A DNA stretch of 64,000 nt, taken from contig JAUYAM010000002.1 of assembly GCA_030693425.1 (NCBI GenBank), forward strand, positions 81,151 through 145,150. Direction: 5' to 3'. The notes beneath the pieces are model-generated. The model saw only the letters and a list, made by a program, of their open reading frames with translations, searched no databases and was not told where the DNA came from. The stretch is from a bacterium. GTDB taxonomy: Bacteria; Patescibacteriota; Minisyncoccia; Minisyncoccales; GWA2-46-15. The position numbers were made by a program, and so were the translations under genes. Below, one piece after another: positions 16,689 through 56,186 of this stretch (within the stretch, counting starts at the first letter, position 1; each line of letters opens with the position of its first letter).

Positions 16689-16712
16689 TGTCTGCTAAAA
16701 TTATACCATAAT

Positions 16713-18083
16713 ATGGTGGCAACAACAAAACAATTTAATATATTGGCCACAATAAGGCGGGAATTAACAGGACAGTTGTTAGCAAGAGTGGATAAAGGGG
16801 CAAATCCTTTAAGAGCTAATGCTTTGATTTGGAGTGAGTATGCAGATAGGTGTAATAAAGAAGGCTTGCCAGTTATTGGCGCGAATTTAAGTTTAGGCAA
16901 TATTGATGCGAGCAGCTTTGATCGTGAGCCGGGACATTGGCATTTGTCTCAAGCGTTGGGAATTCACCCTGATGGTGAAATATATAGGCAAATTAGTCTG
17001 ACTAAAGAAAAGTTAAATAGAGAGTATTATTTTTCAGGTAGATCGCTGGCGAAATATGGCGATTTTACCGGTATAGAAGAAGCGAGACTGGCTTTTTCAA
17101 AATATTTAGCCCAGTGGGGCGGAGTGATGATCAGTAAAGAAGAAACGTTTTTTTCTAGTGGCGGAACTTCAGATGCGGCTCAAAGAGAAATGGGAGCTTT
17201 GGTTTTATGGTTAGATAAGAAGCAACTAGAGGCTAACTTTTTAACCACTGTCCCTGGATACACGCCGGTAATTAATATGGCTAGAAGAGCGGGGATGCGA
17301 GTGATAACTTTAGAATGTGGCGAGACGGATAGTTATTTTTTACAGGCGGACCAGGCGCGTCAGATAGTACAAGATCAAAACATAGGAGTATTTTATATCG
17401 TACCGATTAACAATCCGACTGGGACGATGATTCCGGCGGATCAGCTAAGTCGGGTAGTAAAGCAAAGCTATGAAGCAAATACGGCAATAATTTTTTTAGT
17501 GGATTTGGCTTATATTACTACGGTGCCTGAAGAACAGGCGCGCGCGATGTTGGCAGTATTCAATAACAAAGAGATTTTAAGACAGACCGTGTTTTTAACC
17601 TCTTTGTCTAAATCTCACGCAATTCCCGGGCAGCGGCTGGGAGCTTGTCATACAATAGTAGCCGGAATGAACGAGTGTTTGCGCGCGGCCACCGAGGCCG
17701 GCAATCCCTGTCATTCAGCCGCGGCAATGCTGGAAGCGGTAGCGGTGCTGGAAAATGTTAGCAAGGAGGCAGTGCGGCAAACTGCGGCAGTGTATAGGCG
17801 GCGTAGAGAGGTAACAGTTGATGTTTTAAGAGACATTAATCGATTAACTGATAGAGAATTGTTTATTGATTTAGACCAGTTGAAAACTGACGGGGCGTTG
17901 TATGTTTATCCGCGACTAGGAAAAAGTAAAACTAGTTTGGATCTTTTTGTTCAGACTGGAATGTGGGGAATTGGGGGAAGATTTTTTGGGGCGGGTGACA
18001 ATGATCAACGAGTGCGCTTGGCAATAGGAGTTAATTCCAGTTTGGAAATTCAAGGCATTCCTTCACAACTAGATCTGTCTTAA
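16713..18083 (+). CDS. class I/II PLP-dependent aminotransferase
   Basis: INNPTGT and SLSKSHAIPGQRLG (PLP-lysine) motifs. Start trimmed from 16656 to MVATTKQ to remove overlap with the divergent gene. Confidence 0.8.
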   Translation: MVATTKQFNILATIRRELTGQLLARVDKGANPLRANALIWSEYADRCNKEGLPVIGANLSLGNIDASSFDREPGHWHLSQALGIHPDGEIYRQISLTKEKLNREYYFSGRSLAKYGDFTGIEEARLAFSKYLAQWGGVMISKEETFFSSGGTSDAAQREMGALVLWLDKKQLEANFLTTVPGYTPVINMARRAGMRVITLECGETDSYFLQADQARQIVQDQNIGVFYIVPINNPTGTMIPADQLSRVVKQSYEANTAIIFLVDLAYITTVPEEQARAMLAVFNNKEILRQTVFLTSLSKSHAIPGQRLGACHTIVAGMNECLRAATEAGNPCHSAAAMLEAVAVLENVSKEAVRQTAAVYRRRREVTVDVLRDINRLTDRELFIDLDQLKTDGALYVYPRLGKSKTSLDLFVQTGMWGIGGRFFGAGDNDQRVRLAIGVNSSLEIQGIPSQLDLS

Positions 18084-18155
18084 CCAATAGATAATTTTTC
18101 TGCGCCGCGGGCTTCTCGGATATTTTGAAAACCGTCTTTTTTCAAGAATTGCACC
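17983..18155. repeat. 173-bp direct repeat, copy 1 (aminotransferase 3' end plus antisense pyrD 3'-end fragment)
   Basis: Hand alignment to 25129..25301 gives 7 mismatches. This copy supplies the functional aminotransferase 3' end. Confidence 0.9.
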
Positions 18156-18210
18156 TGAAAAAGGCACCTGAAAAAGGTACCTGGTCCCTTTTCCCCTGGT
18201 CCCTTTTCCC
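18152..18210. repeat. junction tandem repeats (2x13 nt and 2x15 nt)
   Basis: cacctgaaaaagg x2, then ctggtcccttttccc x2. The two pairs are imperfect reverse complements of each other. They sit exactly where pyrD homology ends. Confidence 0.85.
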
Positions 18211-18224
18211 CTTGTCAATCCTAA

Positions 18225-18370
18225 TCATATTGGTAGTTCAATATAAAAAGAGGTGCCTTTGTTTTTTCCGGCCGATTCAACTCTGATATCTCCGCCGTGG
18301 AGCTTGACGAATTTCTGGGCGATGTAAAGGCCCAACCCGACTCCTTCGGTCCAGTAGCGGTCGCCGGCGT
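18225..18370 (-). pseudogene. orphan 3' fragment of sensor histidine kinase (fragment A)
   Basis: Encodes ...DRYWTEGVGLGLYIAQKFVKLHGGDIRVESAGKNKGTSFYIELPI (HATPase_c tail only). The upstream part of the 86-aa ORF is unrelated sequence. Confidence 0.85.
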
Positions 18371-18623
18371 TGCTGGTGCTGGTTGGTCTTACCATGACTG
18401 AATTTGAGACACTCGGGTCGAGGTCTAAAAATGTGAATATCTCAGTTTTTATAGTTTTGTTCGGAAAATGAGACAAATGAGACATGAAAAGACGCGTTCC
18501 GCTTTACCGGAACCAGATTATGCAGGGATTGAGAGCGTGGCAAGCGTTGAAAAACGAAACAATTGCTATTCTATAACATCTACCCGTCCTTCTACTCACT
18601 ATATTTAAGGCAATATCCTATCT

Positions 18624-19308: not shown

Positions 19309-19902
19309 TTATTCCTCTCCCATCTTTTCTAGGACGACTCTCATAATTTCACTATGGATTTCAAGAGGTTTCTTTTCGCCATCCAGAATCACCCAGCCCT
19401 CGGCACAAGCCAGCGTTTCGTAGGCTTCGGCCATACGGGCATGGTATTCTAGATCCTTACCGTCAAAGAAATCTCTTCCACGAGCTTCAGTGCGTAATCC
19501 TGCCCTTTCTGGAGAAATCTTCAGAAGGAAAGTCAGATCTGGCTTTTTACCCTCAAAGGCAATCTTGTTTAATCTTCTTCTCAGGCCCTCATCCTGAGAC
19601 AAAAGACCAAATTGAGAGTGGTATGCCAAGTATGACTCATCCCACCGGTCTGCAAGGACGATTTGCCCAGCTCCCAGGGCCTCCGTGGCTTTTACGAACT
19701 GCTGGCGATGCAAAGCCTGAAAAGCCAGTGTGATAGCGACATCGTCCCAGTACAAGAAGAAATGAGATAGACCCTCCTTCTCTGCCTCATCATATGCCTT
19801 AGAGATAAATATTCTAAGTCCTTTTCTCTCCAAGACTTCTCGTAAAAGATAGATCTGCGTACCCTTTCCGCAACCATCAATTCCAGTTATACAGATTAAC
19901 AT
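19309..19902 (-). CDS. thymidylate kinase-like P-loop kinase
   Basis: GIDGCGKGT P-loop, ADRWDESYLAYH (DR motif region) and a PDLTFLLKISPERAGLR lid-like region. Clearly GC-richer than its neighbours and has a GGAGG SD 6 nt upstream. Confidence 0.65.
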   Translation of the reverse strand: MLICITGIDGCGKGTQIYLLREVLERKGLRIFISKAYDEAEKEGLSHFFLYWDDVAITLAFQALHRQQFVKATEALGAGQIVLADRWDESYLAYHSQFGLLSQDEGLRRRLNKIAFEGKKPDLTFLLKISPERAGLRTEARGRDFFDGKDLEYHARMAEAYETLACAEGWVILDGEKKPLEIHSEIMRVVLEKMGEE

Positions 19903-19943
19903 CGGAAGCCTCCTTCCTTCTCTCGAGCCTATGTTCTAGACAA

Positions 19944-24356: not shown

Positions 24357-24922
24357 GTGATATTATTATTAATAATAGATAAGTATTTTTTAATTTTAAT
24401 TTTATTTTACCTAATATTCTTAGGAGCCCTTTTTGAAGCCCCTTGGCTTCCTACAATGAAAAAGAACTTCGATAGAATAGCAAAATTAGCGGGTCTGCAA
24501 CCAGGCATGTTGTTTTATGATCTGGGTAGCGGTAGCGGTGAATTGTTATTTTGCTTATCAAAGAAATATGATGTGAATTGTATCGGGATAGAGATTTCAC
24601 CGCTTCTGTACTTGTATTCAAAAATCAAATCTTTATTTTTTAACAAAGTAAAAATTAGATACGGCAATTTTTACAAATACGATTTATCAAAAGCAGATGC
24701 GGTTTATGTTTTTCTATTCCCAAAAGCTTACTATAGATTAAAAACCAAAATTAGCTCGGGACTAAAAAAGGAGCAAGGGTAATATTATCTTACTGGCCCT
24801 TTGAATACTGGGAACCAACCGAAATAAGCGAAAAAGAAAATTCAGTCACCTATTATTTATATATTGTGCAAAAAGAAAAGGAAGGTTATTTTTTGTCAGT
24901 TAAAGCGGGAAGTTCAATATAA
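24357..24922 (+). pseudogene. TM-anchored class I SAM-dependent methyltransferase, frameshifted at an A6 run
   Basis: Track ORF 24357..24782 (GTG start) has motif I, FYDLGSGSGELL. After the A-run at about 24764-24769 the next frame reads KKGARVILSYWPFEYW, the expected continuation. Confidence 0.55.
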
Positions 24923-25137
24923 AAAGAGGTGCCTTTGTTTTTTCCGGCCGATTCAACTCTGATATCTCCGCCGTGGAGCCTGACGAATTTCTGGGCGATG
25001 TAAAGGCCAAGACCGGCTCCTTCGGTCCAGTATTTTCCGTCGGCCTGGCCTCTGGAAAAGCTTCGGAAAAGCTCTTTTAAGTCTTGTTTACTGATGCCCG
25101 CTCCCGTGTCTTTTATTTCTATGACGACTTTTTGGGG
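24886..25137 (-). pseudogene. orphan 3' fragment of sensor histidine kinase (fragment B), fused to antisense aminotransferase sequence
   Basis: Encodes VVIEIKDTGAGISKQDLKELFRSFSRG...GLGLYIAQKFVRLHGGDIRVESAGKNKGTSFYIELP. The N-terminal MPSALVDHCHPP of the 94-aa ORF is antisense to the repeat copy. Confidence 0.85.
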
Positions 25138-26432: not shown

Positions 26433-27764
26433 TTAGGGTGAAAACTGGCTGGCGACTCGAGCAAAATCCCAGATTCCCGTCCGATTCGACTCCCCTATTT
26501 TCAAATGGTCCAAGCAATGATTCTCCCTTAGCTTTTTGATGAGATGAGCGGTGTAAGCCGGGGCGCCGGTGGCGCCGGGGGAGTTAAAGTTCAAGACGTG
26601 GAAGGATCTGTGACCGAAAATTTCCAATGCTTCTTTGACGAATTTCCCCTGACGATCAATGACCGGACTGCGAATGCCGGCCGAGCCTTTCTTCGTTAGA
26701 TATTCTGGTTTGACGCCGGGTAAAAACTTCCTGACTCGTCGGACCATTGCTTCCTTAAAAAAAGAACTTTGCCACTCTTCCAGGGCCAAGCGCAGAAACT
26801 CATGATTCATCATCAGTTTGATTTTATTTGCCAGGGGCATTTCAAAAACTTTCTTTAAGCCGGAAAGCGGATTCTCGAAAAATCCTTTATAGGCGTAAGG
26901 GCCCAGAACCGGCACGGCCGTTGGGCCGATCTCAACTTGATCGTCCCAACGGCTGATCCAGTGCGGGTCGAGAAAAGGAAATTCCGAGTGGCGCGGCACC
27001 GAGTAGATATTATGATTGGCCAAACCGGCTCGCGCCGGATCAACGATCCAGTATTCTCCGCGGAAATTTAAGTCGGTTAAATCTCGCGCCACGCCCAGAA
27101 GATGGGCAATTTTTACGGCTTGGCCGCCGGCGCAGTTCAGCACATATTTGGCCGAAAGATTTTTGCCGTTAGCAAGGGCGAGGTCAAGACAGCCGCCGGT
27201 TTTTTTGATTTTTTTAACCTCGCATTCCAGCAAAAATTCAACCCCGTCGTTTTCCGCGTCGCTTCTTAAACTTTTTGTCAATGCGTAAAAATCGGTGGCA
27301 ACGTCCGTTTTGCAGAAAAAAGCTCCTCGGCACTCTATATTCGGCTCCATTTTCTTTGCCTCCGCCGAATCCAGAAGCTCGATTTCCTTTTCGTCCATTC
27401 CGTTCTCCGCCGACCATTTCTGGTATTTCTTGAGGGTCAGCAGATCGGCCTCGTTAAGAGCCACCTCGAGCGTTCCCCTTTTGACCCAGGGGAGCTGTTT
27501 CAGCGAAGCGTATTTTTCCCAGAGCGGAAAAGACAAGAGAGCCGAGCGGGCGAAAATTTTCTTTTTTTCCGGATCGAGGTAAAACGGCCGGTGGACAACT
27601 CCGGTATTACGCTTGGTGGCGTGCAGGCCGGTGTCGTTCTCTTTTTCTATGACGACAATCCCCCCTGTTTCGTAAATGGTTGCCAGCCAATAAGCCAGGG
27701 TTGTTCCCAGAATTCCTCCGCCTACGATCGCCAGATTGTATGTTTTGCTTTTTGGCAGATCCAT
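26433..27764 (-). CDS. FAD-dependent oxidoreductase, L-2-hydroxyglutarate oxidase (LhgO)-like
   Basis: IVGGGILGT dinucleotide fold, with FRGEYW and NFNSPGATGAPA motifs as in the LhgO/DAO family. Confidence 0.6.
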   Translation of the reverse strand: MDLPKSKTYNLAIVGGGILGTTLAYWLATIYETGGIVVIEKENDTGLHATKRNTGVVHRPFYLDPEKKKIFARSALLSFPLWEKYASLKQLPWVKRGTLEVALNEADLLTLKKYQKWSAENGMDEKEIELLDSAEAKKMEPNIECRGAFFCKTDVATDFYALTKSLRSDAENDGVEFLLECEVKKIKKTGGCLDLALANGKNLSAKYVLNCAGGQAVKIAHLLGVARDLTDLNFRGEYWIVDPARAGLANHNIYSVPRHSEFPFLDPHWISRWDDQVEIGPTAVPVLGPYAYKGFFENPLSGLKKVFEMPLANKIKLMMNHEFLRLALEEWQSSFFKEAMVRRVRKFLPGVKPEYLTKKGSAGIRSPVIDRQGKFVKEALEIFGHRSFHVLNFNSPGATGAPAYTAHLIKKLRENHCLDHLKIGESNRTGIWDFARVASQFSP

Positions 27765-27795: not shown

Positions 27796-30039
27796 TCAGC
27801 GGTCTCGACTTGTTTTGCTTAGGATTAGATTCCCTATTTCATTTTTGTCTGCTGCCATCGGCAGATCAATGTAAAAAGAGGTGCCTTTGTTTTTTCCGGC
27901 TGATTCGGCGCGGATATCGCCGCCGTGGAGCTTGACGAATTTCTGGGCGATGTAAAGGCCCAACCCGGCTCCTTCGGTCCAGTAGCGGTCGCCGGCGTGG
28001 CCTCTAGAAAAGCTTTTGAAAAGGTCTTTGAGGTCTTTTTTGCTGATACCCGCCCCGGTGTCTTTTATTTCAATGACGACTTTTTGGGATAGTCCCCGGC
28101 TTTGACTGGCTTCGACGGTAATGTTTCCCTTTTGGGTGTAGAGGATGGCGTTGTCAATGATAATAATAAGCACCTGCCTGATTTTTTCCTTGTCCATAAG
28201 AATTTGGGGCAACGGCTCTTTCTCCTCTTTGTAGGCTAAAACTAGGTTCTTTCCCTTGGCTTCGGTTTTTAGGGCTTCGATGACGCTGGTAATCAGTTCT
28301 TTGAGCGAGCTCTTTTCCAGGTTTAGTTCGATTCGGCCGGCTTCTATTCTGGAAACTGTTAAAATATCTCCGACCAGCTTTATTAACCTCTCGTTTGTCT
28401 GAAAAACTCTTTGGATAGGCTCTTTCATTCTCCCGGGCATGTTTCCGTAGGTTCCTTCAACGGCCATCGACAAATACCCCTTGATAATACTCAAAGGAGT
28501 TCTTAGTTGGTGCGAAGCAATGGAGATAAACTCCGATTTTGCCTCGTCTAGTTTTTTGAGCTCTTCGTAAGCCTCTTTTAATTCTCTGGTTTGTTCATCA
28601 ACCTTGGCTTGGAGGTTTTTTGACAAGTCTTGAACTTGGGAATAAAGCTTGGCGTTTTGCAGGGCAATCGAGGCCTGATGCGACAGGGCCGTGAGCAGGT
28701 CCAAGTCCTCTTTGGAATAGGAATCTCCGGAAATCTTGTTGCCCAGGACGATGATGCCGATAATTTTATCTTCGATTAAAAGCGGCAGGCAGAGGCTGGC
28801 CTCAATCCTTTTCATGTTTTGCTTCAGCTTTTCGAGATCGGTTTTTTCCGTCATTTTGCTGTCTCTAATGACCAAAGACAATTCCTCATAAACCAAGGCT
28901 CTTTTGGTTTTCTCGAGATATGAGGTTAAGAAATCGTCCCTGACCAAAGAGATGCCGTTTTCCTCTCTGAATCCGATATTCTTTTTGATCTGGTAGTCTC
29001 CGGTTTGAGGATCCCTTAAAAGGATGACCGTTCTGTCTAACTTCATGGTTTCTACCAGGGTGCTGGTGATTAAAGAAGCTAACTGATCAAGGTCTAATAC
29101 TCGGGTCAATTTTCTTCCCATGTTGATGATGACCGTTTGATACGAATAGAATGTGTAATAGAAATATTTTGAAGCCAGGTTTTCAAAAAAACGGTAGACC
29201 GGTTGAAATAAAAGGATGCTTAAAAAAATAATTAATGGTCCTAAAACATTGAAAGTTGCTGGTTGCTCTAATTTGTTATTCAGAATGATTGTCAAAGAAG
29301 CCAGACCGATGACGACAAGGAAGGAAAGAAAATAAACCGCGCTTTTGCCGATGACAAAACGGATATCCATTAGTTGATAGACCATGACGGCGTAAGAAAC
29401 AAAACCGACCATGAAAAGAGTTGCCACCTGGCCAAGCCAATTAAAGCGGAAATCACCGATGGTCGGCAGGAATAAATTAAAGATTGATCCCAGAACAATG
29501 GAAAGGCTGGTCCCCAAGAGCATATACCTGACTTGTGATTTTAGGATCCCATGAGACTTTATATATCTTTTAAAAAGATTCCAAAGAGCCCAGGTGAAAT
29601 AGCTGGAAATGTAGACCGTATAAAGGAGATAAGCTGGTCCCCAAAGAATTTCTTTTTCTTGGCCAAGATGAACTTTTACATCTTTGATAATCATTCCTTT
29701 CAAAGCTACCAAGACGACTACAATAATCATTGGCAAGACAATCAAGAGACATTCTCTTTTTGTGATTTTCCATTCTCCGTGGGGGTAGATAAAGGTAAAA
29801 TATAAGAAAGAGATCGGAATAAGGGTGGCCGAAACATAAAGAATCTGGCACCAAATAACAGAAGTTTCTTGCGGCGAGGATCTGTAGAGAATCATCGAGG
29901 CTATCCAGAGGATGACTGCTCCGATAACAGTGCTCCAAATCAAATTTACTTTTCCTCTTTTGCTTTTAAAATAACTGAAAAATGCCAAAGCAAAATTAGC
30001 AATCAGGACAATTACAAGAATAGTATTTTTCCAGTCCAT
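27796..30039 (-). CDS. sensor histidine kinase (7TM N-terminal domain, GAF-like, HisKA, HATPase_c)
   Basis: 747 aa. About 7 TM helices, HisKA SIASHQLRTPL, HATPase GAGLGLYIAQKFVKLHGGDIRAESAGKNKGTSFYIDLP. This is the intact source-like copy of the repeated 3' segment. Confidence 0.9.
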   Translation of the reverse strand: MDWKNTILVIVLIANFALAFFSYFKSKRGKVNLIWSTVIGAVILWIASMILYRSSPQETSVIWCQILYVSATLIPISFLYFTFIYPHGEWKITKRECLLIVLPMIIVVVLVALKGMIIKDVKVHLGQEKEILWGPAYLLYTVYISSYFTWALWNLFKRYIKSHGILKSQVRYMLLGTSLSIVLGSIFNLFLPTIGDFRFNWLGQVATLFMVGFVSYAVMVYQLMDIRFVIGKSAVYFLSFLVVIGLASLTIILNNKLEQPATFNVLGPLIIFLSILLFQPVYRFFENLASKYFYYTFYSYQTVIINMGRKLTRVLDLDQLASLITSTLVETMKLDRTVILLRDPQTGDYQIKKNIGFREENGISLVRDDFLTSYLEKTKRALVYEELSLVIRDSKMTEKTDLEKLKQNMKRIEASLCLPLLIEDKIIGIIVLGNKISGDSYSKEDLDLLTALSHQASIALQNAKLYSQVQDLSKNLQAKVDEQTRELKEAYEELKKLDEAKSEFISIASHQLRTPLSIIKGYLSMAVEGTYGNMPGRMKEPIQRVFQTNERLIKLVGDILTVSRIEAGRIELNLEKSSLKELITSVIEALKTEAKGKNLVLAYKEEKEPLPQILMDKEKIRQVLIIIIDNAILYTQKGNITVEASQSRGLSQKVVIEIKDTGAGISKKDLKDLFKSFSRGHAGDRYWTEGAGLGLYIAQKFVKLHGGDIRAESAGKNKGTSFYIDLPMAADKNEIGNLILSKTSRDR

Positions 30040-30093
30040 ATTGATTTATATTACCACCAAAAGTTTTGAAAATCAAAAGTGAGCCCTTGTCAG

Positions 30094-31098
30094 CTAGAGC
30101 TCACTTTGATGTTCGACTATGGGTGCCGTAAACCCAAGCATCCTTGCGGCATTATTGAATCGCTGCTGGTCATCAATCTTAGCGTTATCGGCAGCGATAA
30201 CAATCGCCTCGACGCAGCACCCTGGCAGCCAAGTAGGTTTCCATTTCGGAAGCCGTGGCATAAAGATGCTCCCTTTTAGCGTCAGGGTGGCCTTGATCAC
30301 TCTGCCCTCCTTTCTTTTTATAGCTGCGACCAAGCGCTTGGGCAATTGAGGGTGCGTATCATCAACGACGATGACCCCGTTATCCAAATGGTCAATTACG
30401 GTTTCCATCTGTTCTCCTCTTGCGGTCAGGACAACCACGACATTGCATCCAGAAACCGCTGCTGGATCACGAGCCCTCCGCTTATCGGCGCGAGGATCAA
30501 TAGCGACTACTTTCCAGGTTTCTTTGAGGGTATTGACCACTCGGGAACCAAGGTATCCATAACCTCCCAAGACGCCGATCTTGACCTGTTCTGGGCTAAG
30601 ACCGGCATCGGCGATAGCTTGTTGTGTGACGGCAACAACAGTGTAGGTTGAGCCCATGTTGCCGGCCACAATCGGCGCGGGTAAGCTACTATAGCCGTTT
30701 TGGAGCAGTACGCTAGGAAGCCGTCCGGCTAGGGCGACTGCCTTAGCGCCGATGGCATCGGCGAGGCTTTTAACCTCTTTAACCATCCTTTCAAGTCTTT
30801 GATGTCGATGACCTGCGTCTTCCATTTCCTCGATCGTGCGAGGGATGGTGACTACCAGTCCAGGGTACCTTCCTTTTATTACGCCGATGACCGAGATCAT
30901 TGGCGCAATTTCCCGGTACCACAGAGGCGCATAGCCGCGCACTTGATCTAAGGTTCCGGGGTAAACCAGGAATATGAACCGGAAGACTGGTCGGCCAAGT
31001 TTTTTTGCCACCCTGAGGGGCATTAAAACGATTGGCCAAAGCAGGTTCATCGTGAAATAGGCCGCAAACCGGCCCAAGAACCACAATTGTCGTTTCAT
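30094..31098 (-). CDS. NAD(P)-binding oxidoreductase, acyl-ACP reductase-like / COG5322-type (tentative)
   Basis: 334 aa, GC-rich. AGNMGSTYTV...IGVLGGYGYLGSRV...VVVLTARGEQ parallels the cyanobacterial acyl-ACP reductase layout as I recall it. N-terminal hydrophobic segment. GGAGG SD 6 nt upstream. Confidence 0.45.
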   Translation of the reverse strand: MKRQLWFLGRFAAYFTMNLLWPIVLMPLRVAKKLGRPVFRFIFLVYPGTLDQVRGYAPLWYREIAPMISVIGVIKGRYPGLVVTIPRTIEEMEDAGHRHQRLERMVKEVKSLADAIGAKAVALAGRLPSVLLQNGYSSLPAPIVAGNMGSTYTVVAVTQQAIADAGLSPEQVKIGVLGGYGYLGSRVVNTLKETWKVVAIDPRADKRRARDPAAVSGCNVVVVLTARGEQMETVIDHLDNGVIVVDDTHPQLPKRLVAAIKRKEGRVIKATLTLKGSIFMPRLPKWKPTWLPGCCVEAIVIAADNAKIDDQQRFNNAARMLGFTAPIVEHQSEL

Positions 31099-31249
31099 CT
31101 GCCACCTCCTGGGTGATTTTCGTAAAGGTCTGCTGACAAGACCTTATTGACAATGTTGCTAATTTATTTATAGCAGAAGTCGAGCAAAAAGAAAAGAGGC
31201 CTCAGCAACTATGTGTGAGGTCTCTTTTAGGTGAAGGGGCGCCGGTCAT

Positions 31250-31459
31250 CTATGCGCCGTGACCGCCTTGCATGACCGCCCTGATGCCGAGAATCGCGCC
31301 GGCAATGACTGCTCCGGCAAACGCCAGCCCTATAACTAGCGGGCTGATGTTCATTTCGGCGGTAACAGCACCGATGATCCCAATTGCTGCGACAGCAATT
31401 ACGATCAATCCTAACCCCCTAACCAAGGGCACTACGATCCAAATCCAAAACTCGTTCAT
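31250..31459 (-). CDS. small two-TM membrane protein (69 aa)
   Basis: Start trimmed to MNEFWIWIVVPL, with GGAG 6 nt upstream. Gly/Ala/Ile-rich TM helices. Confidence 0.55.
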   Translation of the reverse strand: MNEFWIWIVVPLVRGLGLIVIAVAAIGIIGAVTAEMNISPLVIGLAFAGAVIAGAILGIRAVMQGGHGA

Positions 31460-31585
31460 GGTAATCTCCTTTTCCTTTCCTTGGAATAGTTCGAATATGC
31501 TGATTTTTTCATAACACAAGTTAGTCGAAAAGAAAAGACCCGGCGCGCTTTGATGAGCGGCCGGGACTTTCTTCCGTGCGGCTGG

Positions 31586-31726
31586 CTAACATACCAGCGC
31601 GCACAGGGGCAAGGGCGGGAATTCATAATAGAATCGCAGCCAGATCATGCCGGCCGCGATCACCACGATCGCCAAGCCGAAGGCGATCGGCACCACCCTC
31701 GCCGGGAGGGAAAGTTTATTGACCAT
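31586..31726 (-). CDS. small membrane protein (46 aa), below the ORF-track threshold
   Basis: Hand translation: MVNKLSLPARVVPIAFGLAIVVIAAGMIWLRFYYEFPPLPLCALVC. AAGGAGG lies 6 nt upstream of the ATG. Confidence 0.45.
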   Translation of the reverse strand: MVNKLSLPARVVPIAFGLAIVVIAAGMIWLRFYYEFPPLPLCALVC

Positions 31727-31791
31727 CACGCACCTCCTTGTGCTATCTATATTAAATCAGAAAACGTTCAGAAGATCAATTAAAATTTAGT

Positions 31792-31863
31792 CATCGGCAG
31801 TTCAACGTAAAAAGCGGTGCCTTTGTTTTTTCCCGCTGATTCGGCGCGGATATCGCCGCCGTG
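31792..31863 (-). pseudogene. orphan 3' fragment of sensor histidine kinase (fragment D)
   Basis: Encodes HGGDIRAESAGKNKGTAFYVELP. About 5 mismatches over 72 nt to 27856-27927. Shares an exact cggcagttcaacgtaaaa with the 3' end of the kinase at 11467. Confidence 0.8.
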
Positions 31864-31960
31864 GCCAGAGATAAAATGTCCGAGGATAACGAATTTCATT
31901 ATTAGACAAATCTCCTTTAACTGCTTATTATTTTAGCACGATAGCTGGGGTTGCCAAGCC

Positions 31961-31989
31961 TTGACTTTCCCTACAGGGCGTGGTATAAT
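31961..31989 (+). promoter_or_regulatory. near-consensus sigma70-type promoter (TTGACT-17 nt-TATAAT, with TGn extended -10)
   Basis: ttgact ttccctacagggcgtgg tataat. Lies 79 nt upstream of the ATG at 32068. Confidence 0.6.
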
Positions 31990-32067
31990 TGAGGTGTTGT
32001 ACACTGTCAATCCCGCTGAGGCGTTATGCCGGAAGCGGGAAAAATATTCAGAAAAGGAGAAGTACAG

Positions 32068-32682
32068 ATGAATACGACGAATTTGCAACAAGCTTTGCAA
32101 GAGGCTCGGGAACGAGCCGAACAGGCCGAACGGGCTCGTGTCGAAGCCGAGACCCAAGCGAAGCTCTTCGGAGTTTTGGCCCGGGTAGCCCAGGCCGATG
32201 TCAAGGCCACTCAGGCCGTGGTCGATGTCAAAGAGACCGAGGCTACTTGGCGGAAAGCCGGCGAAAACGAGGCAATCGCCTCCGAGGCCAAAACCAAGGC
32301 CGAGGCCGGAAAGACCGAGGCCGAGAAGAAATTGGTCCAGGCCAAAGCTGACTTCAAGGTCGCCGAGGCCAGTGAGGTTCAGGCCAAGGATATTCTGGTT
32401 GCAGCCGCCAAGGTGGCTCAGGCCATGGCTATTGCCAAGGCCGATGCTGACAAGGATCTGGCCGTGGCCCGAGCAGAGCTGGAAAAAATCCAGCCTCTGG
32501 CCCCCGCCCCCGAGCCCACTCCAGTTCCCGTTCTCGACTCCGTTCCGGCCAAAGCCCATGTCGGATTTTGGGCCAAGTTGTTTGGGGGTCAATCAACCGT
32601 CAAATGCCCGAGCTGCGGGCAGATGACGCCTCAGGGGCCATTCTGCGTTAACTGCAGCGGGGCACTAGGAGGTGTTGCATGA
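32068..32682 (+). CDS. Ala/Glu/Lys-rich coiled-coil protein with C-terminal zinc ribbon
   Basis: Start trimmed to MNTTNLQQ, with a GGAG SD 8 nt upstream. C-terminal CPSCG...CVNC. About 60% GC. Confidence 0.65.
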   Translation: MNTTNLQQALQEARERAEQAERARVEAETQAKLFGVLARVAQADVKATQAVVDVKETEATWRKAGENEAIASEAKTKAEAGKTEAEKKLVQAKADFKVAEASEVQAKDILVAAAKVAQAMAIAKADADKDLAVARAELEKIQPLAPAPEPTPVPVLDSVPAKAHVGFWAKLFGGQSTVKCPSCGQMTPQGPFCVNCSGALGGVA

Positions 32683-33545
32683 CCTCCCTTACTTGCCCTG
32701 GCTGTGGCCAGCCGGTTCGGGTCGGCTGGAAGTTCTGCGGCAGTTGTCGCACTCCATTGTCCGCCCCGCCCGCCGCCGCTACCCCCGCCCAGCCTGCGCC
32801 TCAGGCCACGCCCCGGATCCCGTTTCGCGTGCGGATCCGGAAGAACTGGCCCCTGTGGGTGGGCCTGGCGGTCATCGGGTCGTGCTGCATGTGCGGGGCC
32901 CTGCTAGTCTCGGCCCTTTGGCTCGAGACGCTGAAATCCACTGTTCAAACAGTGGCTCAGCAGCAGGTCGAGCCGCCGGCATCGTATGTGCCGACGCAGG
33001 CCCCGGCCGTGGTCCCTCAACCTGATTCTGGGGCCCAGCCCCAGCCCGGGACATCTGATCCCGGGATCGCACCTCTCGCGCCCCTGTCGCTCCCGCCCGC
33101 CCTGTCCGGCCAATACCAGGTGGTGGATCCTGACGGAAATTACCTCGTCGGGACCATCACTTTCGCCGATGGGGCCGGCTGCTACGACGGGTGCGGGTCT
33201 TTCTCAGCGAATATCACGCCGAGAGAAGTCCAGGCCATGGACGACGGCACGATCGTCTTCCACTTCCAGATCGATTTTCTGGAGGTCAGCGGCAATCCAT
33301 ATTTCCGGCAGGAGTTCTTGAACGCCACAATGTATATCAACAACGTGGAGTTCAAGCCCACCGGCAGTTCTCTCCCAAGTCAGGTTACCCCGGAATTAGT
33401 GGGGAAACCACTGATGGGGTACCTGACATTCCCGGGACGGATTCTCGCGGTGGATCCAGCGAATTCACCGGAGTATAGTTTCCGGCTCGAGATTCCCCTT
33501 CTCAATCAGCCACTAGTAGGAGGGTGGCTGAAACCAAAGAGCTAG
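32679..33545 (+). CDS. zinc-ribbon / Pro-rich / single-TM protein with extracytoplasmic domain
   Basis: N-terminal CPGCG...CGSC, a Pro/Ala linker and the TM helix WPLWVGLAVIGSCCMCGALLVSALWL. ATGA overlap with the upstream gene. Confidence 0.65.
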   Translation: MTSLTCPGCGQPVRVGWKFCGSCRTPLSAPPAAATPAQPAPQATPRIPFRVRIRKNWPLWVGLAVIGSCCMCGALLVSALWLETLKSTVQTVAQQQVEPPASYVPTQAPAVVPQPDSGAQPQPGTSDPGIAPLAPLSLPPALSGQYQVVDPDGNYLVGTITFADGAGCYDGCGSFSANITPREVQAMDDGTIVFHFQIDFLEVSGNPYFRQEFLNATMYINNVEFKPTGSSLPSQVTPELVGKPLMGYLTFPGRILAVDPANSPEYSFRLEIPLLNQPLVGGWLKPKS

Positions 33546-33715
33546 GAAGGTAGCTCAAATGAGAAAAAAAGTGCCCAAAGTATATGCCCAAAGCGTATGC
33601 GGCGGGCACTTTTTCATTAGCATTTCGATCAGACAGTTCCTCTTTATTACAACGCCGCCGGGGCGCGTTGTGTTAAACTTCACTTCGTACAAGATCATTT
33701 CAAAAACAACCATAC

Positions 33716-33741
33716 AAAAAATCCACGATCGTGGATTTTTT
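33716..33741. terminator. bidirectional intrinsic terminator
   Basis: aaaaaatccac-gatc-gtggatttttt: a perfect stem flanked by an A-tract and a T-tract, between convergent genes. Confidence 0.75.
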
Positions 33742-33769
33742 GTAATCTTGGCATTTCATCTTCCGGTCT

Positions 33770-34045
33770 TTATTCAGTCGGCAGGTTGCCCGGCGGTTCG
33801 GGGTCTTTTGAGGCTAATAGCCGAGGTTCTTGGCCAGCCGGCAAAGAAACTGGCGCTGGCGTTGGTGCCTGGCTCACCTGCCTCTTTGCGAGCTCGGGTG
33901 TTTTCTCTGGTTTTGACTCCATGACAGGTTCAGCCTTTATTTTCGGCAAGCTGGGCTTAATAATTGGTTTTTGCTTTCTTTGGAAACGCTGAAAAGCAAA
34001 GATAGTCAGACAAACCGCCAGAAGGATTAAGAAAAAAAGTGTCAT
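33770..34045 (-). CDS. membrane-anchored Pro/Lys-rich hypothetical protein
   Basis: Start trimmed to MTLFFLILLAVCL (TM helix), followed by a low-complexity tail. Confidence 0.4.
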   Translation of the reverse strand: MTLFFLILLAVCLTIFAFQRFQRKQKPIIKPSLPKIKAEPVMESKPEKTPELAKRQVSQAPTPAPVSLPAGQEPRLLASKDPEPPGNLPTE

Positions 34046-34116
34046 GTTTTTTGTGAGTTGCTTAACCCGGTTAAGCAACAGACCCTTTATATTTTATCCG
34101 CGCACCAGTCCCGCTT

Positions 34117-35595
34117 TTAGCGGGACGGTGCGGGATTCCGCTCCACGCGTAAGCGTGGGAGGAATCCCGTAGCGGAGAAGATACCACGCGCTTGCGCGTG
34201 GAGCTTCATTTTCTTCTTTTCTGTTTTGCCTGTCAATAAAAGCGATAAGTTATAGATATCCCCTGCCCCCATGATAACCAGAACTTCGTTGCCTGTCAGG
34301 TTTTTCTTTAAGTAAGTGACAATTTTTCGGGCAGTCGGAATATAAAAGATCTTTGTATTTCGTATATCGTATTTTGTATCTAGTATTTGTTGGACGGCGA
34401 CGGCGAGCTTTTGAGAATCGACTTTCTTTTTAATAGCCTGGCTTTCGCGGCCAGCCACGCTGTAAATTGGCGCCAAAATGAGCTTATTAATAGGAGCCGC
34501 AGCCAAAACTTTGACAAAATCTTTGAACAAATAATATGTCCTTTGATATTGGTGAGGCTGGAAAACGCAAAAGATTTTCTTTTTCGGATATTTTTCCCTA
34601 ACAGCTTTAAGAGTGACTTCGATTTCTTTTGGGTGATGGGCGTAGTCGGAAATTAGTTTATAGTTTATAGTTTTTAGTTTAATAGTTCTTTCTTCAAAGC
34701 GGCGCCAGGCGCCGCGATATTCGCTTAACGCCTGAAAGCTGGTTTTGTCCGGGATTTTTAAGATTCTGGCAACTGAAAGGGCTGCCAAAGCATCAGCAAC
34801 TATATGTTCGCCAGGTATTTTCAGTATTTTTCTTAGTTTTTCTGCTTCTTTCAATTTTCTATCAAATAATACCGTGTTTTTCACGGCCGTGAAAAAGATG
34901 GTTTTCTCATTTATGTTTGTTACCAGCCAGCCATGTTTTGGCAAATGCCCGACGAATTTTCTGAAAGTCTTGATAATATTGCCTAAGGTTTTAAAGTAAT
35001 CCAAGTGGTCTTTATCAATCGTTGTCAGAACGATGATTTGGGGCCAGTAGTTCAAAAAAGAAGAGGCGTATTCATCGGCTTCGATGACGAGTATTTTGTA
35101 TTTAGTATTTAGTATCTTGTATCCGAATTTTTTCCCAAGGCGGAAGTTACTATCGCCGAATTCTTTTAGTTTTGTGCCGATGATCACGGTCGGGTCAAGG
35201 CCGGCCTTTATCAGGATCAAAGAAATCATCGCGGTGGTCGTGCCTTTGCCGTGAGTGCCGCAGACGGCAATGGTAAAGTATTGTTTAGTCAGCTTGCCAA
35301 GCGCTTCGGGATATGATTGGCGCTTAATCCTCCATTCCTTCGCCGCTTTTAACTCTGGGTTGTTTGGTTGAACCGCCGGGCTGTAAATCACCAAATCCGG
35401 CAACTGTTTAACCTCAGGGGTTAAACATTGGGGGTTGTGTTTGCCGATTCGAACTCTGGCTCCTAATTTTTCTAAGGCCTTGGTTATTTCAGACTCAGCC
35501 AAATCAGACCCTGAAACCTGGTGGCCTTGTGAAAGATAATATCTGGCTAGAGCTGAAACGCCGATGCCGCCAATGCCAATGAAGTGAACTCTCAT
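34117..35595 (-). CDS. murC: UDP-N-acetylmuramate--L-alanine ligase
   Basis: FIGIGGIGVSALA, GTHGKGTTT and EADEYASSF motifs. Carries three in-frame heptamer-array inserts and a ~35-aa C-terminal extension encoded by GC-rich hairpins. Confidence 0.9.
   Translation of the reverse strand: MRVHFIGIGGIGVSALARYYLSQGHQVSGSDLAESEITKALEKLGARVRIGKHNPQCLTPEVKQLPDLVIYSPAVQPNNPELKAAKEWRIKRQSYPEALGKLTKQYFTIAVCGTHGKGTTTAMISLILIKAGLDPTVIIGTKLKEFGDSNFRLGKKFGYKILNTKYKILVIEADEYASSFLNYWPQIIVLTTIDKDHLDYFKTLGNIIKTFRKFVGHLPKHGWLVTNINEKTIFFTAVKNTVLFDRKLKEAEKLRKILKIPGEHIVADALAALSVARILKIPDKTSFQALSEYRGAWRRFEERTIKLKTINYKLISDYAHHPKEIEVTLKAVREKYPKKKIFCVFQPHQYQRTYYLFKDFVKVLAAAPINKLILAPIYSVAGRESQAIKKKVDSQKLAVAVQQILDTKYDIRNTKIFYIPTARKIVTYLKKNLTGNEVLVIMGAGDIYNLSLLLTGKTEKKKMKLHAQARGIFSATGFLPRLRVERNPAPSR
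34354..34388. repeat. 5 x 7-nt tandem array, GTAT type, in frame in murC
   Basis: tgtattt cgtatat cgtattt tgtatct agtattt. Encodes DTKYDIRNTKI. Confidence 0.85.
34654..34688. repeat. about 5 x 7-nt tandem array, TAGTTTA type, in frame in murC
   Basis: tagttta tagttta tagtttt tagttta atagttc. Encodes KLKTINYKLIS. Confidence 0.8.
35090..35124. repeat. 5 x 7-nt tandem array, GTAT type, in frame in murC
   Basis: agtattt tgtattt agtattt agtatct tgtatcc. Encodes YKILNTKYKIL immediately before the conserved EADE motif. Confidence 0.85.
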
Positions 35596-36244: not shown

Positions 36245-36284
36245 ATTTTTGAATTATAGCAGAAAAAGCATTATAATTGAATAA

Positions 36285-43655: not shown

Positions 43656-45152
43656 CTAGAGATTGTAGACTTGGCTGTACTTTTCCTCCAAGTATGCCAG
43701 ATAGGGACCGGGATTCAGATCTTCCCCGGTCAGACTTCTGACCAGGGCTGGCATTTCGTAAGCCATGCCCCAGTCGTGGATATGATCTTTCAGCCACGCT
43801 TTGACGGCCAAGAGTTTCCCTGACCCGATTTCAGCCGTGAGGCTCATGTCGGTTTCCATCCTTTCGCGGATCATGGCAGTCATCAGGTTGCCCAGCAAAT
43901 AGGAAGGAAAGTAGCCGATGTAGCCGACCGACCAGTGCACATCCTGGAGACAACCCACGGCGTCATTCTCGGGCGTGATTCCAAGATATTCTTTCATTTT
44001 GGCGTTCCAGGCCGCAGGCAGGTCAGCAGGGTCCAGTTCGCCGGAAAGCAAAGCAAGCTCCAATTCAAATCTCAGAAGGATATGGAGGCCGTATGTAACC
44101 TCGTCCGCCTCCGTCCTGATGAGCGAGGGTTTGGAAGCATTGATCGCTTTCCAAAAGGCGTCCAGCGGCACCTCTTGGAACTCCGGCATGATGGCTTTGA
44201 GGAACGGGAAGAAGTATTCCCAGAAAGCCATGCTGCGGCCGACGACGTTTTCCCAGAACCGCGACTGGGACTCATGCGTGGCCATGGAGTAAGCAAGGCC
44301 GCCGATGTCAAACCAGAGCCAGTCAAAGTCAGAGGCTGCCCCTTGGCAGTAGAGGCCGTGTCCTCCCTCGTGCATGGTGCCAAAAAGGCAGATCTTTATG
44401 TCGTTGGGTTTGATCTTGGTTGTGAGCCGGATGTCGTTGGGGCCGACAGTGATGGTCATTGGATGGCCAGGAACGGCGATCAGTCTGCCGGACCCGAAAT
44501 CAAATCCCATGCGAGCCAGGATGAGCCGGCTGAATATTTCCTGGCGGTCGGGCGCAAAGAATCCCTGTATACAGGATTCGTCCACTGGCTTCGCCTCAGC
44601 AATCCTTCTGACCAGGTCAGTCAGAGGCTGTCGCAGCGGAAATAGGACTCTCTTCGTTTCCTCCGCTGTTATGCCAGGCTCAAAGTCGGGTGCGAGGTCG
44701 TCGTACGGGTGATGTCCAGAGCCCAATGCGCTGGCTCTTTCTTTGGCCAGGTTAAGGACTTGCCTCAAGCTGGGCAGAAAGACGTCGAAGTTGGCTCTAT
44801 CTTTAGCTTGTGTCCAATCACGATGGGCCTGGGAGGTGGCCTTGGCAAGGGCGCTGACGAGATGTAGCGGAACTGCCTTGGCTCGCGTATAGCCTCGCTC
44901 AATCATCCGGACAAGATTGGCGCGGCCTGGGTCAAGATCGGTAACGCTGGCCAATTGAGCCAGCACTTCTCCGATTTCCGGCCGGGTGAACATTTCGGCT
45001 GCTTTTCCTGCCATGAAAGCCTTGATTTCGTCGCGCCCGGGGCCGGCATTGTTTGGCAGCATAGTTTCCCTGTCTGCGTCAAAGAGGGACAGGGTGTGGC
45101 CGTAATAGGCCACCTCTTTCAAGAGAAGTAGTAATTCTTCCCATTTAGTCAT
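43656..45152 (-). CDS. M32-family carboxypeptidase (Taq-type)
   Basis: HEGGHGLY zinc motif, about 500 aa, GC-rich. GGAGG SD 5 nt upstream. Confidence 0.8.
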   Translation of the reverse strand: MTKWEELLLLLKEVAYYGHTLSLFDADRETMLPNNAGPGRDEIKAFMAGKAAEMFTRPEIGEVLAQLASVTDLDPGRANLVRMIERGYTRAKAVPLHLVSALAKATSQAHRDWTQAKDRANFDVFLPSLRQVLNLAKERASALGSGHHPYDDLAPDFEPGITAEETKRVLFPLRQPLTDLVRRIAEAKPVDESCIQGFFAPDRQEIFSRLILARMGFDFGSGRLIAVPGHPMTITVGPNDIRLTTKIKPNDIKICLFGTMHEGGHGLYCQGAASDFDWLWFDIGGLAYSMATHESQSRFWENVVGRSMAFWEYFFPFLKAIMPEFQEVPLDAFWKAINASKPSLIRTEADEVTYGLHILLRFELELALLSGELDPADLPAAWNAKMKEYLGITPENDAVGCLQDVHWSVGYIGYFPSYLLGNLMTAMIRERMETDMSLTAEIGSGKLLAVKAWLKDHIHDWGMAYEMPALVRSLTGEDLNPGPYLAYLEEKYSQVYNL

Positions 45153-45319
45153 TTCATCCTCCGATCTGTTATCTAAGAGATAAGGTGTCTTTTTGAGAAT
45201 CTTGTTATGCGAAAGGGCTGATAAGCCTCCTTTTTCAGGATCGTGAACGCGATCCCTATAATAAAATACTAAAACGGTCTGACTAAAGTGTCAAACAGAA
45301 AAATAGATCTTTGATGGGA

Positions 45320-47186: not shown

Positions 47187-48428
47187 TTAGATGCTCATTC
47201 TGGAGTAGCGCCTGATCATATTAAGTATGATTGGAGGCACCAGCTCGAGCTCATCAACGACCAGGAACTCCTTTGGGCCGTGTAAATTCCTGGCCCCTGC
47301 CCCTATATTGGGAGCCGGCAGGTCCGGATAGAGCATGTTTAGGGCAGCACCGTCCGTTCCCCCACGGACATCACCCAACTTTGGTTCAAGGCCCAAGGCG
47401 CGATGGGCATCAATTGCCGGCTGAACCAGGTCCATGTGCTTGTCAACGGCCAGGCGGGTATTAATACAGCTTAGTTTATCATCAACAGTAGCCGTACACC
47501 CGTACCGGTGAGCGCAGCGTTCGGCAAGCGTCCGGAGCGTTTGTGCCATCTGCTCTAATTCTGCCGTGTCAAACGATCGAGGCACGCAGGTGACTGATGC
47601 CAGAGTCGCGTCGCCCTTTATCTCCACGACATAATAAAATGGTCGTTGTCCGCTGGCGGTCATTGGCGTCGGATACTCCTCAGCCAGCCTTGCTACAAAT
47701 TTGGCGGCAGCGTAGTGAGCTGGTTTGATTCTATCGCCCTGAAGACCAGGATGCGCCGTTTCGCCCTTGAAGCTGATTACGGTCAGATGGCTGGCAAGAC
47801 AGCCGACGTCAATCAACCCTGCCTGTTCCCCATCTACGGTCCAAAATATACTCCAGGACCTAACCGTTTCTGCGGGCACGGCTTCAAAGTCCAGGCCACC
47901 GGTTTCCTCATCTACGCAAAACCAAAACGTGAGAGGCCCGTGTTCGATGCTGTCAGCCAGAAGTGATCGAATAACCACGACGAGAGCAGCAACGCCAGCC
48001 TTGTCATCCGCGCCAAGGAGCGTGCTGCCGTCAGCGGTGACGATCCTTTTGCCTCCTCCTAGCCCGGCAAGATCATTCGCCGAAATTATCACTCCTCCTT
48101 GAGGAAGAACAATATCCCCGCCTCTGTAATAGTGAACGATCGGGCAAGCTTTGCCGGGAAAGCTATAGTGAGTGTCAAGGTGAACCGCATAAACAACATG
48201 CGGAGCTCCTTGTGAACCTGGCGTGGCCGAGAAATTGACCAGGAACGAACCATCCCGAAGGGGTATGAGTTGATCGAATCCCAAACCCGCTTCAAGAAGT
48301 TGGCGTTGGATTAACTCACCAAGAACTTTCTGCCCGGCTGAGCTTGGGTGTTGACTGCTCCCCATGACAGACCTGGTGTCAATCCAAACGTATTGTAAAA
48401 AAAGATCTAAAAGACTTATTTGTGCCAT
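47187..48428 (-). CDS. M20-family metallopeptidase (peptidase T-like)
   Basis: HLDTH, GADDKAGVAAL and DEETGG motifs. GC-rich. Start moved to the second ATG (MAQISLL), giving 9-nt spacing from the GGAG. Confidence 0.75.
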   Translation of the reverse strand: MAQISLLDLFLQYVWIDTRSVMGSSQHPSSAGQKVLGELIQRQLLEAGLGFDQLIPLRDGSFLVNFSATPGSQGAPHVVYAVHLDTHYSFPGKACPIVHYYRGGDIVLPQGGVIISANDLAGLGGGKRIVTADGSTLLGADDKAGVAALVVVIRSLLADSIEHGPLTFWFCVDEETGGLDFEAVPAETVRSWSIFWTVDGEQAGLIDVGCLASHLTVISFKGETAHPGLQGDRIKPAHYAAAKFVARLAEEYPTPMTASGQRPFYYVVEIKGDATLASVTCVPRSFDTAELEQMAQTLRTLAERCAHRYGCTATVDDKLSCINTRLAVDKHMDLVQPAIDAHRALGLEPKLGDVRGGTDGAALNMLYPDLPAPNIGAGARNLHGPKEFLVVDELELVPPIILNMIRRYSRMSI

Positions 48429-48560
48429 TGGGCACATCTCCTTTTCTAGCTCGTCTGAGAGCTATCTCTAGCCAAACAGAAAAAGTTCTTTCAGTCAAGA
48501 GTCAATTACAAAAAACCCTGTCAAAAAAACAAGGTTGTCTATAGAATAAATCTAAAGAAA

Positions 48561-56180: not shown

Positions 56181-56186
56181 ATTCGC

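Follow-up and report, generated by a model that had tools for sequence, protein, structure and literature searches.

We analysed a window of 64,000 nucleotides (the whole stretch of DNA considered here) from contig JAUYAM010000002.1 of assembly GCA_030693425.1, in which a minority of genes, most of them GC-rich, begin behind strong Shine-Dalgarno (SD) sites and the majority begin without one. The host is a small-genome bacterium of the Candidate Phyla Radiation (CPR) and belongs to the Parcubacteria group (Nealsonbacteria-like), as judged from the relatives of its MurC protein and from its Pfam gene content. The proteins most similar to MurC (34117-35595, minus strand) come from metagenome-assembled genomes (MAGs) of Candidatus Nealsonbacteria and other Patescibacteria, at identities of up to 59%. 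Pfam confirmed the core genes gap, murC, ppsA, dnaB, cysS and efp, and further assigned bL25, DeoC, PfkB, Acs, iPGM, Fmt, RecR, Obg, DnaX and bL21, together with a second 7TM histidine kinase. The window has an overall GC content of 44.1% and a single tRNA, at 53.5 kb. An initial annotation proposed that the SD-led genes had recently been acquired from an SD-dependent donor of higher GC content. Our comparison with relatives points instead to two native regimes of translation initiation that have probably been maintained side by side.

Two classes of gene starts in the window

For 65 curated genes, the 19 nt ending 3 nt before each start were scored against GAUCACCUCCUUU as anti-SD duplex energies. 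These energies are bimodal: 12 starts lie at -8.9 to -15.5 kcal/mol (Table 1), and the other 53 sit at background, mostly above -5. The motifs of the twelve range from AAGGAG to AAGGAGGTG, with A-AGGAGGTG as the canonical form, and a spacer of 4-9 nt separates them from the ATG. AGGAGG occurs 28 times on both strands, and eight of these occurrences lie 4-13 nt upstream of a curated start, where 0.14 would be expected. Control windows inside genes reach the SD threshold (-8.5) in 8% of cases overall and in 19% within genes of at least 50% GC, against an SD rate of 75% at the starts of genes in that GC class. Energies at or below -11 are found for eight genes and for 4 of 195 control windows. 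The twelve starts coincide exactly with those in the initial annotation, whose gene starts and SD positions are thereby confirmed, and the bimodal energies bear out its impression of two initiation styles in one window. It had also described gap, murC, ppsA, dnaB, cysS and efp as lacking an SD, and this is the case.

SD-led starts are strongly associated with composition. They account for nine of the 12 genes with at least 50% GC and for three of the 53 below that value (Fisher p=1.3e-6); a lack of difference between the GC classes, which the initial annotation had named as evidence against its own reading, is thus not what the scores reveal. Mean GC is 53.6% in SD-led genes and 42.6% in the rest (Mann-Whitney p=6e-7), or 54.3% and 44.2% when the AT-rich island described below is left out (p=1e-6). 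The block at 30.1-33.5 kb, reported to reach about 60% GC in sampled lines, spans 51-63% and reaches 62-63% at 32.0-33.5 kb. The claim that every GC-rich gene carries an SD goes too far, as four housekeeping genes at 50-52% GC have no convincing site: the FAD oxidoreductase 26433-27764 (50%), the DEAD helicase 50137-51459 (52%), Obg 51466-52428 (51%) and DnaB (50%). On this account, we reject a strict biophysical coupling in which GC-rich coding sequence always needs an SD. Similarly, the listed SD genes are GC-rich with the exception of the thymidylate-kinase (tmk)-like gene (46%), the 56737 gene (48%) and the 58533 gene (47.5%).

The source of the GC excess varies among the SD-led genes. In approximately half of them, GC at third codon positions (GC3) stays within the core range, and the excess resides in codon positions 1 and 2 because the proteins are rich in Ala, Gly, Arg and Pro and poor in Lys, Ile and Asn. 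Specifically, Gly, Ala, Arg and Pro make up 30-32% of residues in SD-led proteins against 23% in core proteins, and Phe, Tyr, Met, Ile, Asn and Lys make up 21-22% against 31%. GC3 is itself raised in the 31586, 32068 and 32679 genes and in the M32 carboxypeptidase. Codon selection for high expression was considered as a cause and rejected, since ribosomal proteins, EF-P and GAPDH have a GC3 of only 0.52-0.56, which is exceeded by M32 (0.66) and the zinc-ribbon gene (0.73).

The two classes also differ in the architecture around their starts. Upstream spacers of 99-441 nt precede 10 of the 12 SD-led genes, several of which have a recognisable consensus promoter or hairpin terminator, whereas most core genes are separated from their upstream neighbour by a few tens of nt at most, and closely spaced operon-internal core genes carry no SD. 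In about ten non-SD genes, mostly the first of their transcription unit, a hexamer matching TATAAT at five or more of six positions ends 6-11 nt before the ATG, a distance from which we conclude that their mRNAs are probably leaderless. Upstream of 52 non-SD genes, in a genome that is AT-rich anyway, A reaches 0.58 at position -3, and G stays mostly at 0.08-0.19 over -14 to -1 and is 0.04 at -1. Folding of the 5′ region (-30 to +33) is stronger for SD-led genes than for the rest (-12.0 against -6.1 kcal/mol, p=1e-4).

Table 1. Features of the window, with SD sites, their positions and duplex energies (dG, kcal/mol).
Feature	Position	Strand	SD site (dG)	Remarks
Starts of the twelve SD-led genes	19902 (-), 31098 (-), 31459 (-), 31726 (-), 32068 (+), 32679 (+), 45152 (-), 48428 (-), 55777 (+), 56245 (+), 56737 (+), 58676 (-)			
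Thymidylate-kinase-like gene (Pfam)	19309..19902	-	AAGGAGG, 19909-19915 (-12.3)	46% GC in ~30% GC island
Acyl-ACP-reductase-like Rossmann gene, 334 aa	30094..31098	-	AGGAGGTG, 31103-31110 (-15.0)	52.6% GC; SD-led
Two-helix membrane protein, 69 aa	31250..31459	-	AAGGAG, 31466-31471 (-8.9)	55% GC; SD-led orphan
Hydrophobic peptide, 46 aa	31586..31726	-	AAGGAGGTG, 31731-31739 (-14.9)	59% GC; GC3 0.80; SD-led orphan
3′-end copy of histidine-kinase gene, 73 nt, 94.5%	31792..31864	-		splits GC-rich block in two
Divergent sigma-70-like promoters	31930..31989	+ and -		+ strand: TTGACT-17-TATAAT (31961-31989), zinc-ribbon pair; - strand: TTGGCA-16-TAAAAT; consensus match only
Coiled coil + C-terminal zinc ribbon, 204 aa	32068..32682	+	AAGGAG, 32054-32059	60% GC; SD-led; first of cassette
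Zinc-ribbon, transmembrane, extracytoplasmic-domain protein, 288 aa	32679..33545	+	AGGAGGTG, 32667-32674 (-14.1)	62% GC; GC3 0.73; SD-led
Hairpin terminators	33539..33744			between convergent zinc-ribbon cassette and proline-rich membrane gene 33770-34045 (-), which follows murC
Divergent spacer, 40 nt	36245..36284			example of core style; TATAAT ends 8 nt upstream of ATG 36244 (-) and 7 nt upstream of ATG 36285 (+); leaderless-type starts; no SD
M32 carboxypeptidase	43656..45152	-	GGAGG, 45158-45162	55% GC; GC3 0.66; SD-led; Pfam E=1e-150
M20-family peptidase (Pfam)	47187..48428	-	AAGGAG, 48438-48443	54% GC; GC3 0.53 (core range)
Three small SD-led orphans	55777-56082, 56245-56592, 56737-56943	+	55765-55772, 56232-56240, 56724-56732	
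SD-led orphan, 47 aa	58533..58676	-	AAGGAGG, 58683-58689	between cysS and dnaB

Orthologs of the SD-led genes in CPR relatives

Tracing to orthologs succeeded for four SD-led genes, namely 30094-31098, M32 and the two zinc-ribbon genes (32068-33545). Nearly all of their orthologs lie 4-21 GC points above their surroundings, and most are SD-led. The richest record comes from the acyl-ACP-reductase (AAR)-like gene 30094-31098, which sits directly upstream of the 7TM histidine kinase gene 27796-30039 and whose product is identical to a protein of the NCBI MAG (locus tag Q8N16_00990). A database of 5.8 billion protein clusters yielded 76 homologs, the named ones being Patescibacteria. A metagenome scan for orthologs returned 52 loci, including 16 distinct CPR loci of low GC content (32-45%). 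In 15 of these 16, a HisKA_7TM kinase, often with a GAF domain, lies directly downstream of the ortholog (the pairs at L081, L084, L086 and L096 are examples), and the contig of the sixteenth ends earlier.

When the start of each ortholog was taken as the best-SD start within 75 nt of the predicted one, SD energies reached -8.5 kcal/mol or lower in 12 of the 16 and lay between -6.5 and -8.1 in a further three. The genes adjoining them are rarely SD-led. All but one of the 16 orthologs stand 4-16 GC points above their flanks. Of the 11 scored for GC3, nine have an excess (dGC3) of about +0.03 to +0.26, and two have values of about 0 and -0.06. These traits are shared despite amino-acid identities of only 28-64%, a divergence that indicates long residence in CPR genomes. 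A second AAR-like clade, at ~30% identity, occurs in genomes of 66-72% GC and without the kinase; its existence makes an ancient transfer possible, though not a recent one.

Structure prediction suggests what this family may be. Pfam gave only sub-threshold matches to DapB_N and 2-Hacid_dh_C for the 30094-31098 product. An AlphaFold2 model (pLDDT 92.5) compared with Foldseek matched AAR structures 6jzq and 6jzz and the carmabin TAD reductase 9e50 at TM 0.64-0.70 and E=1e-13 to 1e-14, with cyanobacterial AAR 6jzq and 9e50 at the top and at TM 0.66-0.70, so the product is predicted to have an AAR fold with a nucleotide-binding domain. It differs from these enzymes in its identity of ~16%, a long N-terminal helix, its pairing with a kinase in CPR genomes and the absence of a Pfam family. 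A Pro-Gly-Cys motif at residues 292-294 of the window protein is invariant in the AAR-like family. At L081, a PlsC-type acyltransferase precedes the AAR-like gene, and the pairing with HisKA_7TM kinases hints at a lipid-related sensing module. At L011, an SD-led gene of 389 aa (15874-17043, dG -17.8) stands beside an SD-led gene of 349 aa (17388-18437) whose sequence pattern is AAR-like; the two exceed their locus in GC content and may be another instance of the SD-led, GC-rich gene class.

The zinc-ribbon genes, which overlap by 4 nt, first appeared to be orphans. This was set aside, because an exhaustive HMMER search gave about eight real relatives, including full-length P0209 and P0210; the Pfam Zn_ribbon_3 match of 32068-32682 is weak. 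Two relatives could be placed on contigs (L144 and L145), and both form a two-gene cassette with a 4-nt overlap. In L145, the cassette adjoins the ortholog of the proline-rich membrane gene (33770-34045 in the window) and the end of murC, as in the window, and has 54-64% GC within flanks of 23-48%, with AAGGAG and GAGGTGA as its SDs. Further, the orthologs of 32068-32682 in L144 and L145 begin at the same MNT... residues as the window protein, and ortholog N-termini thus support the SD-proximal starts. In the public annotation, the 288-aa gene is 140 aa long (MDP3093324.1), and the 204-aa and 69-aa genes are listed at 218 aa and 89 aa, respectively.

The slot that holds this cassette, between the MurC-linked proline-rich membrane gene and the kinase (31100-34078 in the window), carries different cargo in each relative. 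In L001 (11435-13677) it contains a glycosyltransferase and an SD-led, GC-richer methyltransferase, and in L096 (2634-3830) a TrmB-like regulator and the AAR-like gene; cargo is thus partly SD-led and GC-rich in both the window and L001. Pfam detected no integrase or transposase domain, and no tRNA lies at the borders of the 30.1-33.5 kb block. The kinase fragment at 31792-31864 was considered as an att-type flank and rejected, as it lies inside the block and not at its ends. Independent Logan contigs cover 27938-31661 and 31729-33742, and one of them crosses the composition boundary at 30.05 kb. Because these contigs break at hairpins, one of them ending at the palindrome 33713-33744, the junctions at ~31.7 and 33.74 kb rest on the MAG assembly; the right-hand arrangement of the block has independent support from L145.

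M32 follows the same pattern. Its closest homologs are 47-62% identical and include a Candidatus Parcubacteria protein, whereas named proteins of other phyla reach no more than 45%. In a neighbour-joining tree, the window protein groups with two sequences from CPR contexts, with a Parcubacteria clade adjacent and all named non-CPR phyla outside. The contigs of three relatives carry typical CPR genes, and M32 is adjacent to efp or at most a few kb away from it in L141 and L143, which matches the window. In these genomes of 39-47% GC, M32 has 54-55% GC and a GC3 of 0.63-0.65 (dGC3 +0.12 to +0.34). The orthologs in L140 (AAAGGAG) and L141, where the GGAGGatgaaATG context is identical to that of the window, have retained the SD. 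As far as homology searches and gene context can tell, the AAR-like and M32 genes have their closest homologs in CPR contexts, and those zinc-ribbon homologs for which most context is available are in a CPR-like setting.

The association extends to genes unrelated to these queries. In a pooled set of 27 non-redundant CPR loci with 343 genes, from which two query families were excluded, 7.3% of genes are SD-led (internal control 4.1%). The share is 34.6% for genes that exceed the median GC of their locus by more than 5 points, compared with 5.0% of the rest (controls 7.7% and 3.8%). The coupling between SD and GC content characterises the lineage rather than this window. The same counts agree with the initial description of the recipient as largely SD-independent, since 53 of the 65 window genes and ~93% of the 343 genes in relatives have no SD.

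Probable maintenance and possible origin of the SD-led genes

We consider it likely, though by no means certain, that this Parcubacteria genome maintains two native translation-initiation regimes. In the core regime, packed housekeeping genes would start leaderless or from upstream sequence that is A-rich, G-poor and weakly folded. In the SD-led regime, genes that are mostly stand-alone, leadered, GC- and Ala-rich and structured would use canonical SD pairing. Their A-AGGAGGTG sites should pair with the standard 16S 3′ end, for which the sequence needed is CACCUCCU; no rRNA is present in the window or in 146 fetched loci of relatives. SDs may be kept because leadered, GC-rich and structured mRNAs cannot use the leaderless or AU-rich route. 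Because the orthologs keep their neighbours, their GC excess and mostly their SD, we regard the coupling as a maintained property of a gene class, and not as the scar of an import that has yet to ameliorate. For the four traceable genes, comparison of orthologs shows SD and GC excess to be inherited, and persistence of the SD in most orthologs implies that an anti-SD is probably functional in this lineage.

Several points weigh against this interpretation. The link between 5′ structure and SD use is drawn from correlation, and consensus motifs are the sole basis for assigning mRNAs as leaderless or leadered. AT-rich, weakly folded start regions without an SD are found in the DEAD helicase, Obg, DnaB and the FAD oxidoreductase, despite coding sequences near 50% GC. 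Only four of the 12 SD-led genes have been traced, and four others are missing from the closest relative, L140. Choosing the best-SD start will have somewhat inflated SD detection in orthologs, and the taxonomy of most metagenomic homologs is drawn from gene context and composition, not from labels. Finally, the share of Parcubacteria 16S sequences with a detected anti-SD motif is only 48% (Tsurumaki et al. 2022, RNA 28:1041, PMC9297842).

Known systems offer partial parallels. In a study of reduced or absent anti-SDs in Parcubacteria 16S rRNA, SD pairing is reported to be dispensable for many members of the group (PMC9297842), and the 53 of 65 window genes without an SD fit this. Unlike that picture, 12 window genes keep strong, extended AGGAGGTG sites that are retained in most traced orthologs; which genes keep an SD is not addressed by that study. 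Among the GeneMarkS-2 classes, group C combines leaderless starts with ribosome-binding sites, group B has non-SD, A-rich starts and group X has weak signals, and Bacteroides ovatus has ~3% SD genes with its anti-SD intact (PMC6028130). The window resembles these groups in having a Pribnow box ~10 nt before some starts, mostly of first genes, and a few true SDs on an SD-poor background, and may also resemble them in the A-rich, non-SD upstream sequence of most genes. It departs from group C in that its operon-internal genes lack an SD, and from the scheme as a whole in that its SD-led minority is GC- and Ala-rich, with the traced members conserved as such across orthologs. Mixed initiation regimes are already known (PMC6028130); for an SD-led minority that differs in composition and is conserved as such across orthologs, we found no description in the literature searched.

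A stronger version of this proposal, which we hold to be possible but doubtful, is that of a small, vertically inherited set of SD-dependent genes, in Parcubacteria that otherwise do without SD pairing, whose whole coding sequence, including synonymous sites, is held at higher GC than the remaining genome by selection or by a biased process. If true, these genes would constitute a separately addressable translation class, gated for example by the availability of the anti-SD as in Bacteroidetes or dependent on the SD to open structured mRNAs, and their composition would represent a stable, gene-specific equilibrium and not a scar of transfer.

Ancient transfer is possibly the original source of the SD-led genes. 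That they entered an ancestor of Parcubacteria from GC-rich bacteria that use SDs and have since kept SDs and GC-rich proteins through inertia or purifying selection, with the two traits functionally unlinked, seems to us unlikely, if conceivable. In its favour, a second clade of the AAR-like family is found in genomes of high GC, M32 proteins at 40-45% identity are common in other phyla, and the GC excess falls to a large extent on codon positions 1 and 2 and so reflects amino-acid composition. Yet GC3 is still elevated by 0.03-0.34 in 12 of 14 scored orthologs that are 28-64% identical, and in sequences so diverged neutral sites should have equilibrated long ago. An unneeded SD should also decay, whereas most orthologs keep theirs, one M32 ortholog with identical spacing, and the same coupling recurs in unrelated gene families of relatives.

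Recent acquisition from an SD-dependent donor of higher GC, not yet ameliorated to an AT-richer and SD-independent recipient, now appears improbable, and it fails for all four traceable genes. Orthologs of these genes occupy matching positions in other CPR genomes, where they show the same excess of GC and are mostly SD-led, at identities of 28-64%. The initial annotation would have given up its proposal had the GC-rich genes branched with orthologs from close relatives, and this is how 30094-31098, the zinc-ribbon pair and M32 behave. What made the proposal attractive was the atypical composition (up to 63% GC in a 44% GC window) and the raised GC3 of the 31586, 32068 and 32679 genes and M32; GC3 is nonetheless host-like in about half of the SD-led genes. 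The location of the block in a variable slot between murC and the kinase, where L001 and L096 have other genes, and the local rearrangement represented by the kinase-gene fragments would also suit an import, as would the distant AAR-like clade (~30% identity) in genomes of 66-72% GC, but the block borders offer neither integrase, transposase nor tRNA. Genomic islands share with the block an atypical GC content and codon usage, accessory or uncharacterised genes and a variable slot between conserved genes. Unlike islands, it has no mobility genes, tRNA or att-type borders, and its genes show the same deviation at the same loci in diverged relatives. Recent gain is possible for the orphans at 55777-56943 and 58533-58676, which are absent from L140; searches of protein clusters and viral contigs found no donor-like homolog for them.

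The possibility that start-codon choice, a chimeric assembly or GGAGG arising by chance in GC-rich DNA has produced the pattern is effectively refuted: set against the 19% control rate in GC-rich genes, the different starts that NCBI picks for three genes and the failure of Logan contigs to bridge 31662-31728 or to reach past 33742 are the excess of SDs over that rate and at or below -11, the extension of motifs to AGGAGGTG with fixed spacing, the ortholog N-termini, the contig crossing the 30.05-kb boundary and the independent cassette beside murC in L145.

Deviant composition together with a foreign-looking ribosome-binding site is a standard heuristic for horizontal transfer. It misleads here, since orthologs in diverged CPR genomes share both traits, and screens for transfer would call too many islands in CPR and in other lineages poor in SDs. 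Three SD-led genes are mis-started or truncated in the public record, to which a single start model, trained on the SD-less and AT-richer majority, may contribute. The genes described here provide a concrete set for asking whether SD:anti-SD pairing still works in Parcubacteria, and the same set bears on why gene-specific GC persists at synonymous sites.

Small genes, orphans and kinase-gene repeats

The two small membrane genes of the block are orphans: the 31250-31459 protein has no Pfam match and its protein cluster holds only the source genome, and the 31586-31726 peptide was not found in the protein collection. Local tblastn searches for these two genes, the M20 peptidase and the tmk-like gene found no orthologs. 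Upstream of the two small genes, the kinase fragment is embedded in an open reading frame of 39 aa (31780-31899, minus strand), the C-terminal two thirds of which correspond to the HATPase_c end of the kinase (GHGGDIRAESAGKNKGTAFYVELP). This frame closely follows a predicted promoter, its ATG is preceded by AAGGAG at a distance of 13 nt, and it could be a relic or an expressed micro-protein.

Four further SD-led orphans lie beside cysS, and no relatives of them were detectable in the protein clusters checked. Each of the three at 55777-56943 has a hairpin terminator and, as judged by eye, a promoter-like TTGACA or TTGCGA upstream. A tandemly duplicated module of ~60 nt, at 56186-56248 and 56680-56740, comprises promoter, SD and the codons for MDN in the order TTGACAAAAT, GGTATGACC, GCACACAAAGGAGGTGC, ATG..GACAAT, and precedes two small orphan genes that look unrelated. 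In the close relative L140 (DnaB 84%, CysS 73% and GtrA 79% identical), the cysS-gtrA gap measures 44 nt, against 1.37 kb in the window, where it holds the three orphans. The cysS-dnaB gap of L140, at 128 nt, leaves no room for the 47-aa orphan. All four may be newer additions. Scans of viral contigs with the 55777-56082 and 56245-56592 proteins found no relatives, and thus lend no support to a phage origin of the orphans at 55777-56943.

The 3′ end of the histidine-kinase gene (27796-28088 of 27796-30039) has three truncated copies on the same strand. Two of them, at 18232-18356 and 24908-25032, are direct repeats of 125 nt that are 95% identical and bracket the island of ~30% GC at 18.4-24.9 kb. 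This island carries genes for HD proteins, the tmk-like kinase, an epimerase, a GT4 glycosyltransferase and a cytidylyltransferase, with no integrase seen among them. The kinase 3′-end copies look like the product of serial insertion or recombination at the 3′ ends of kinase genes.

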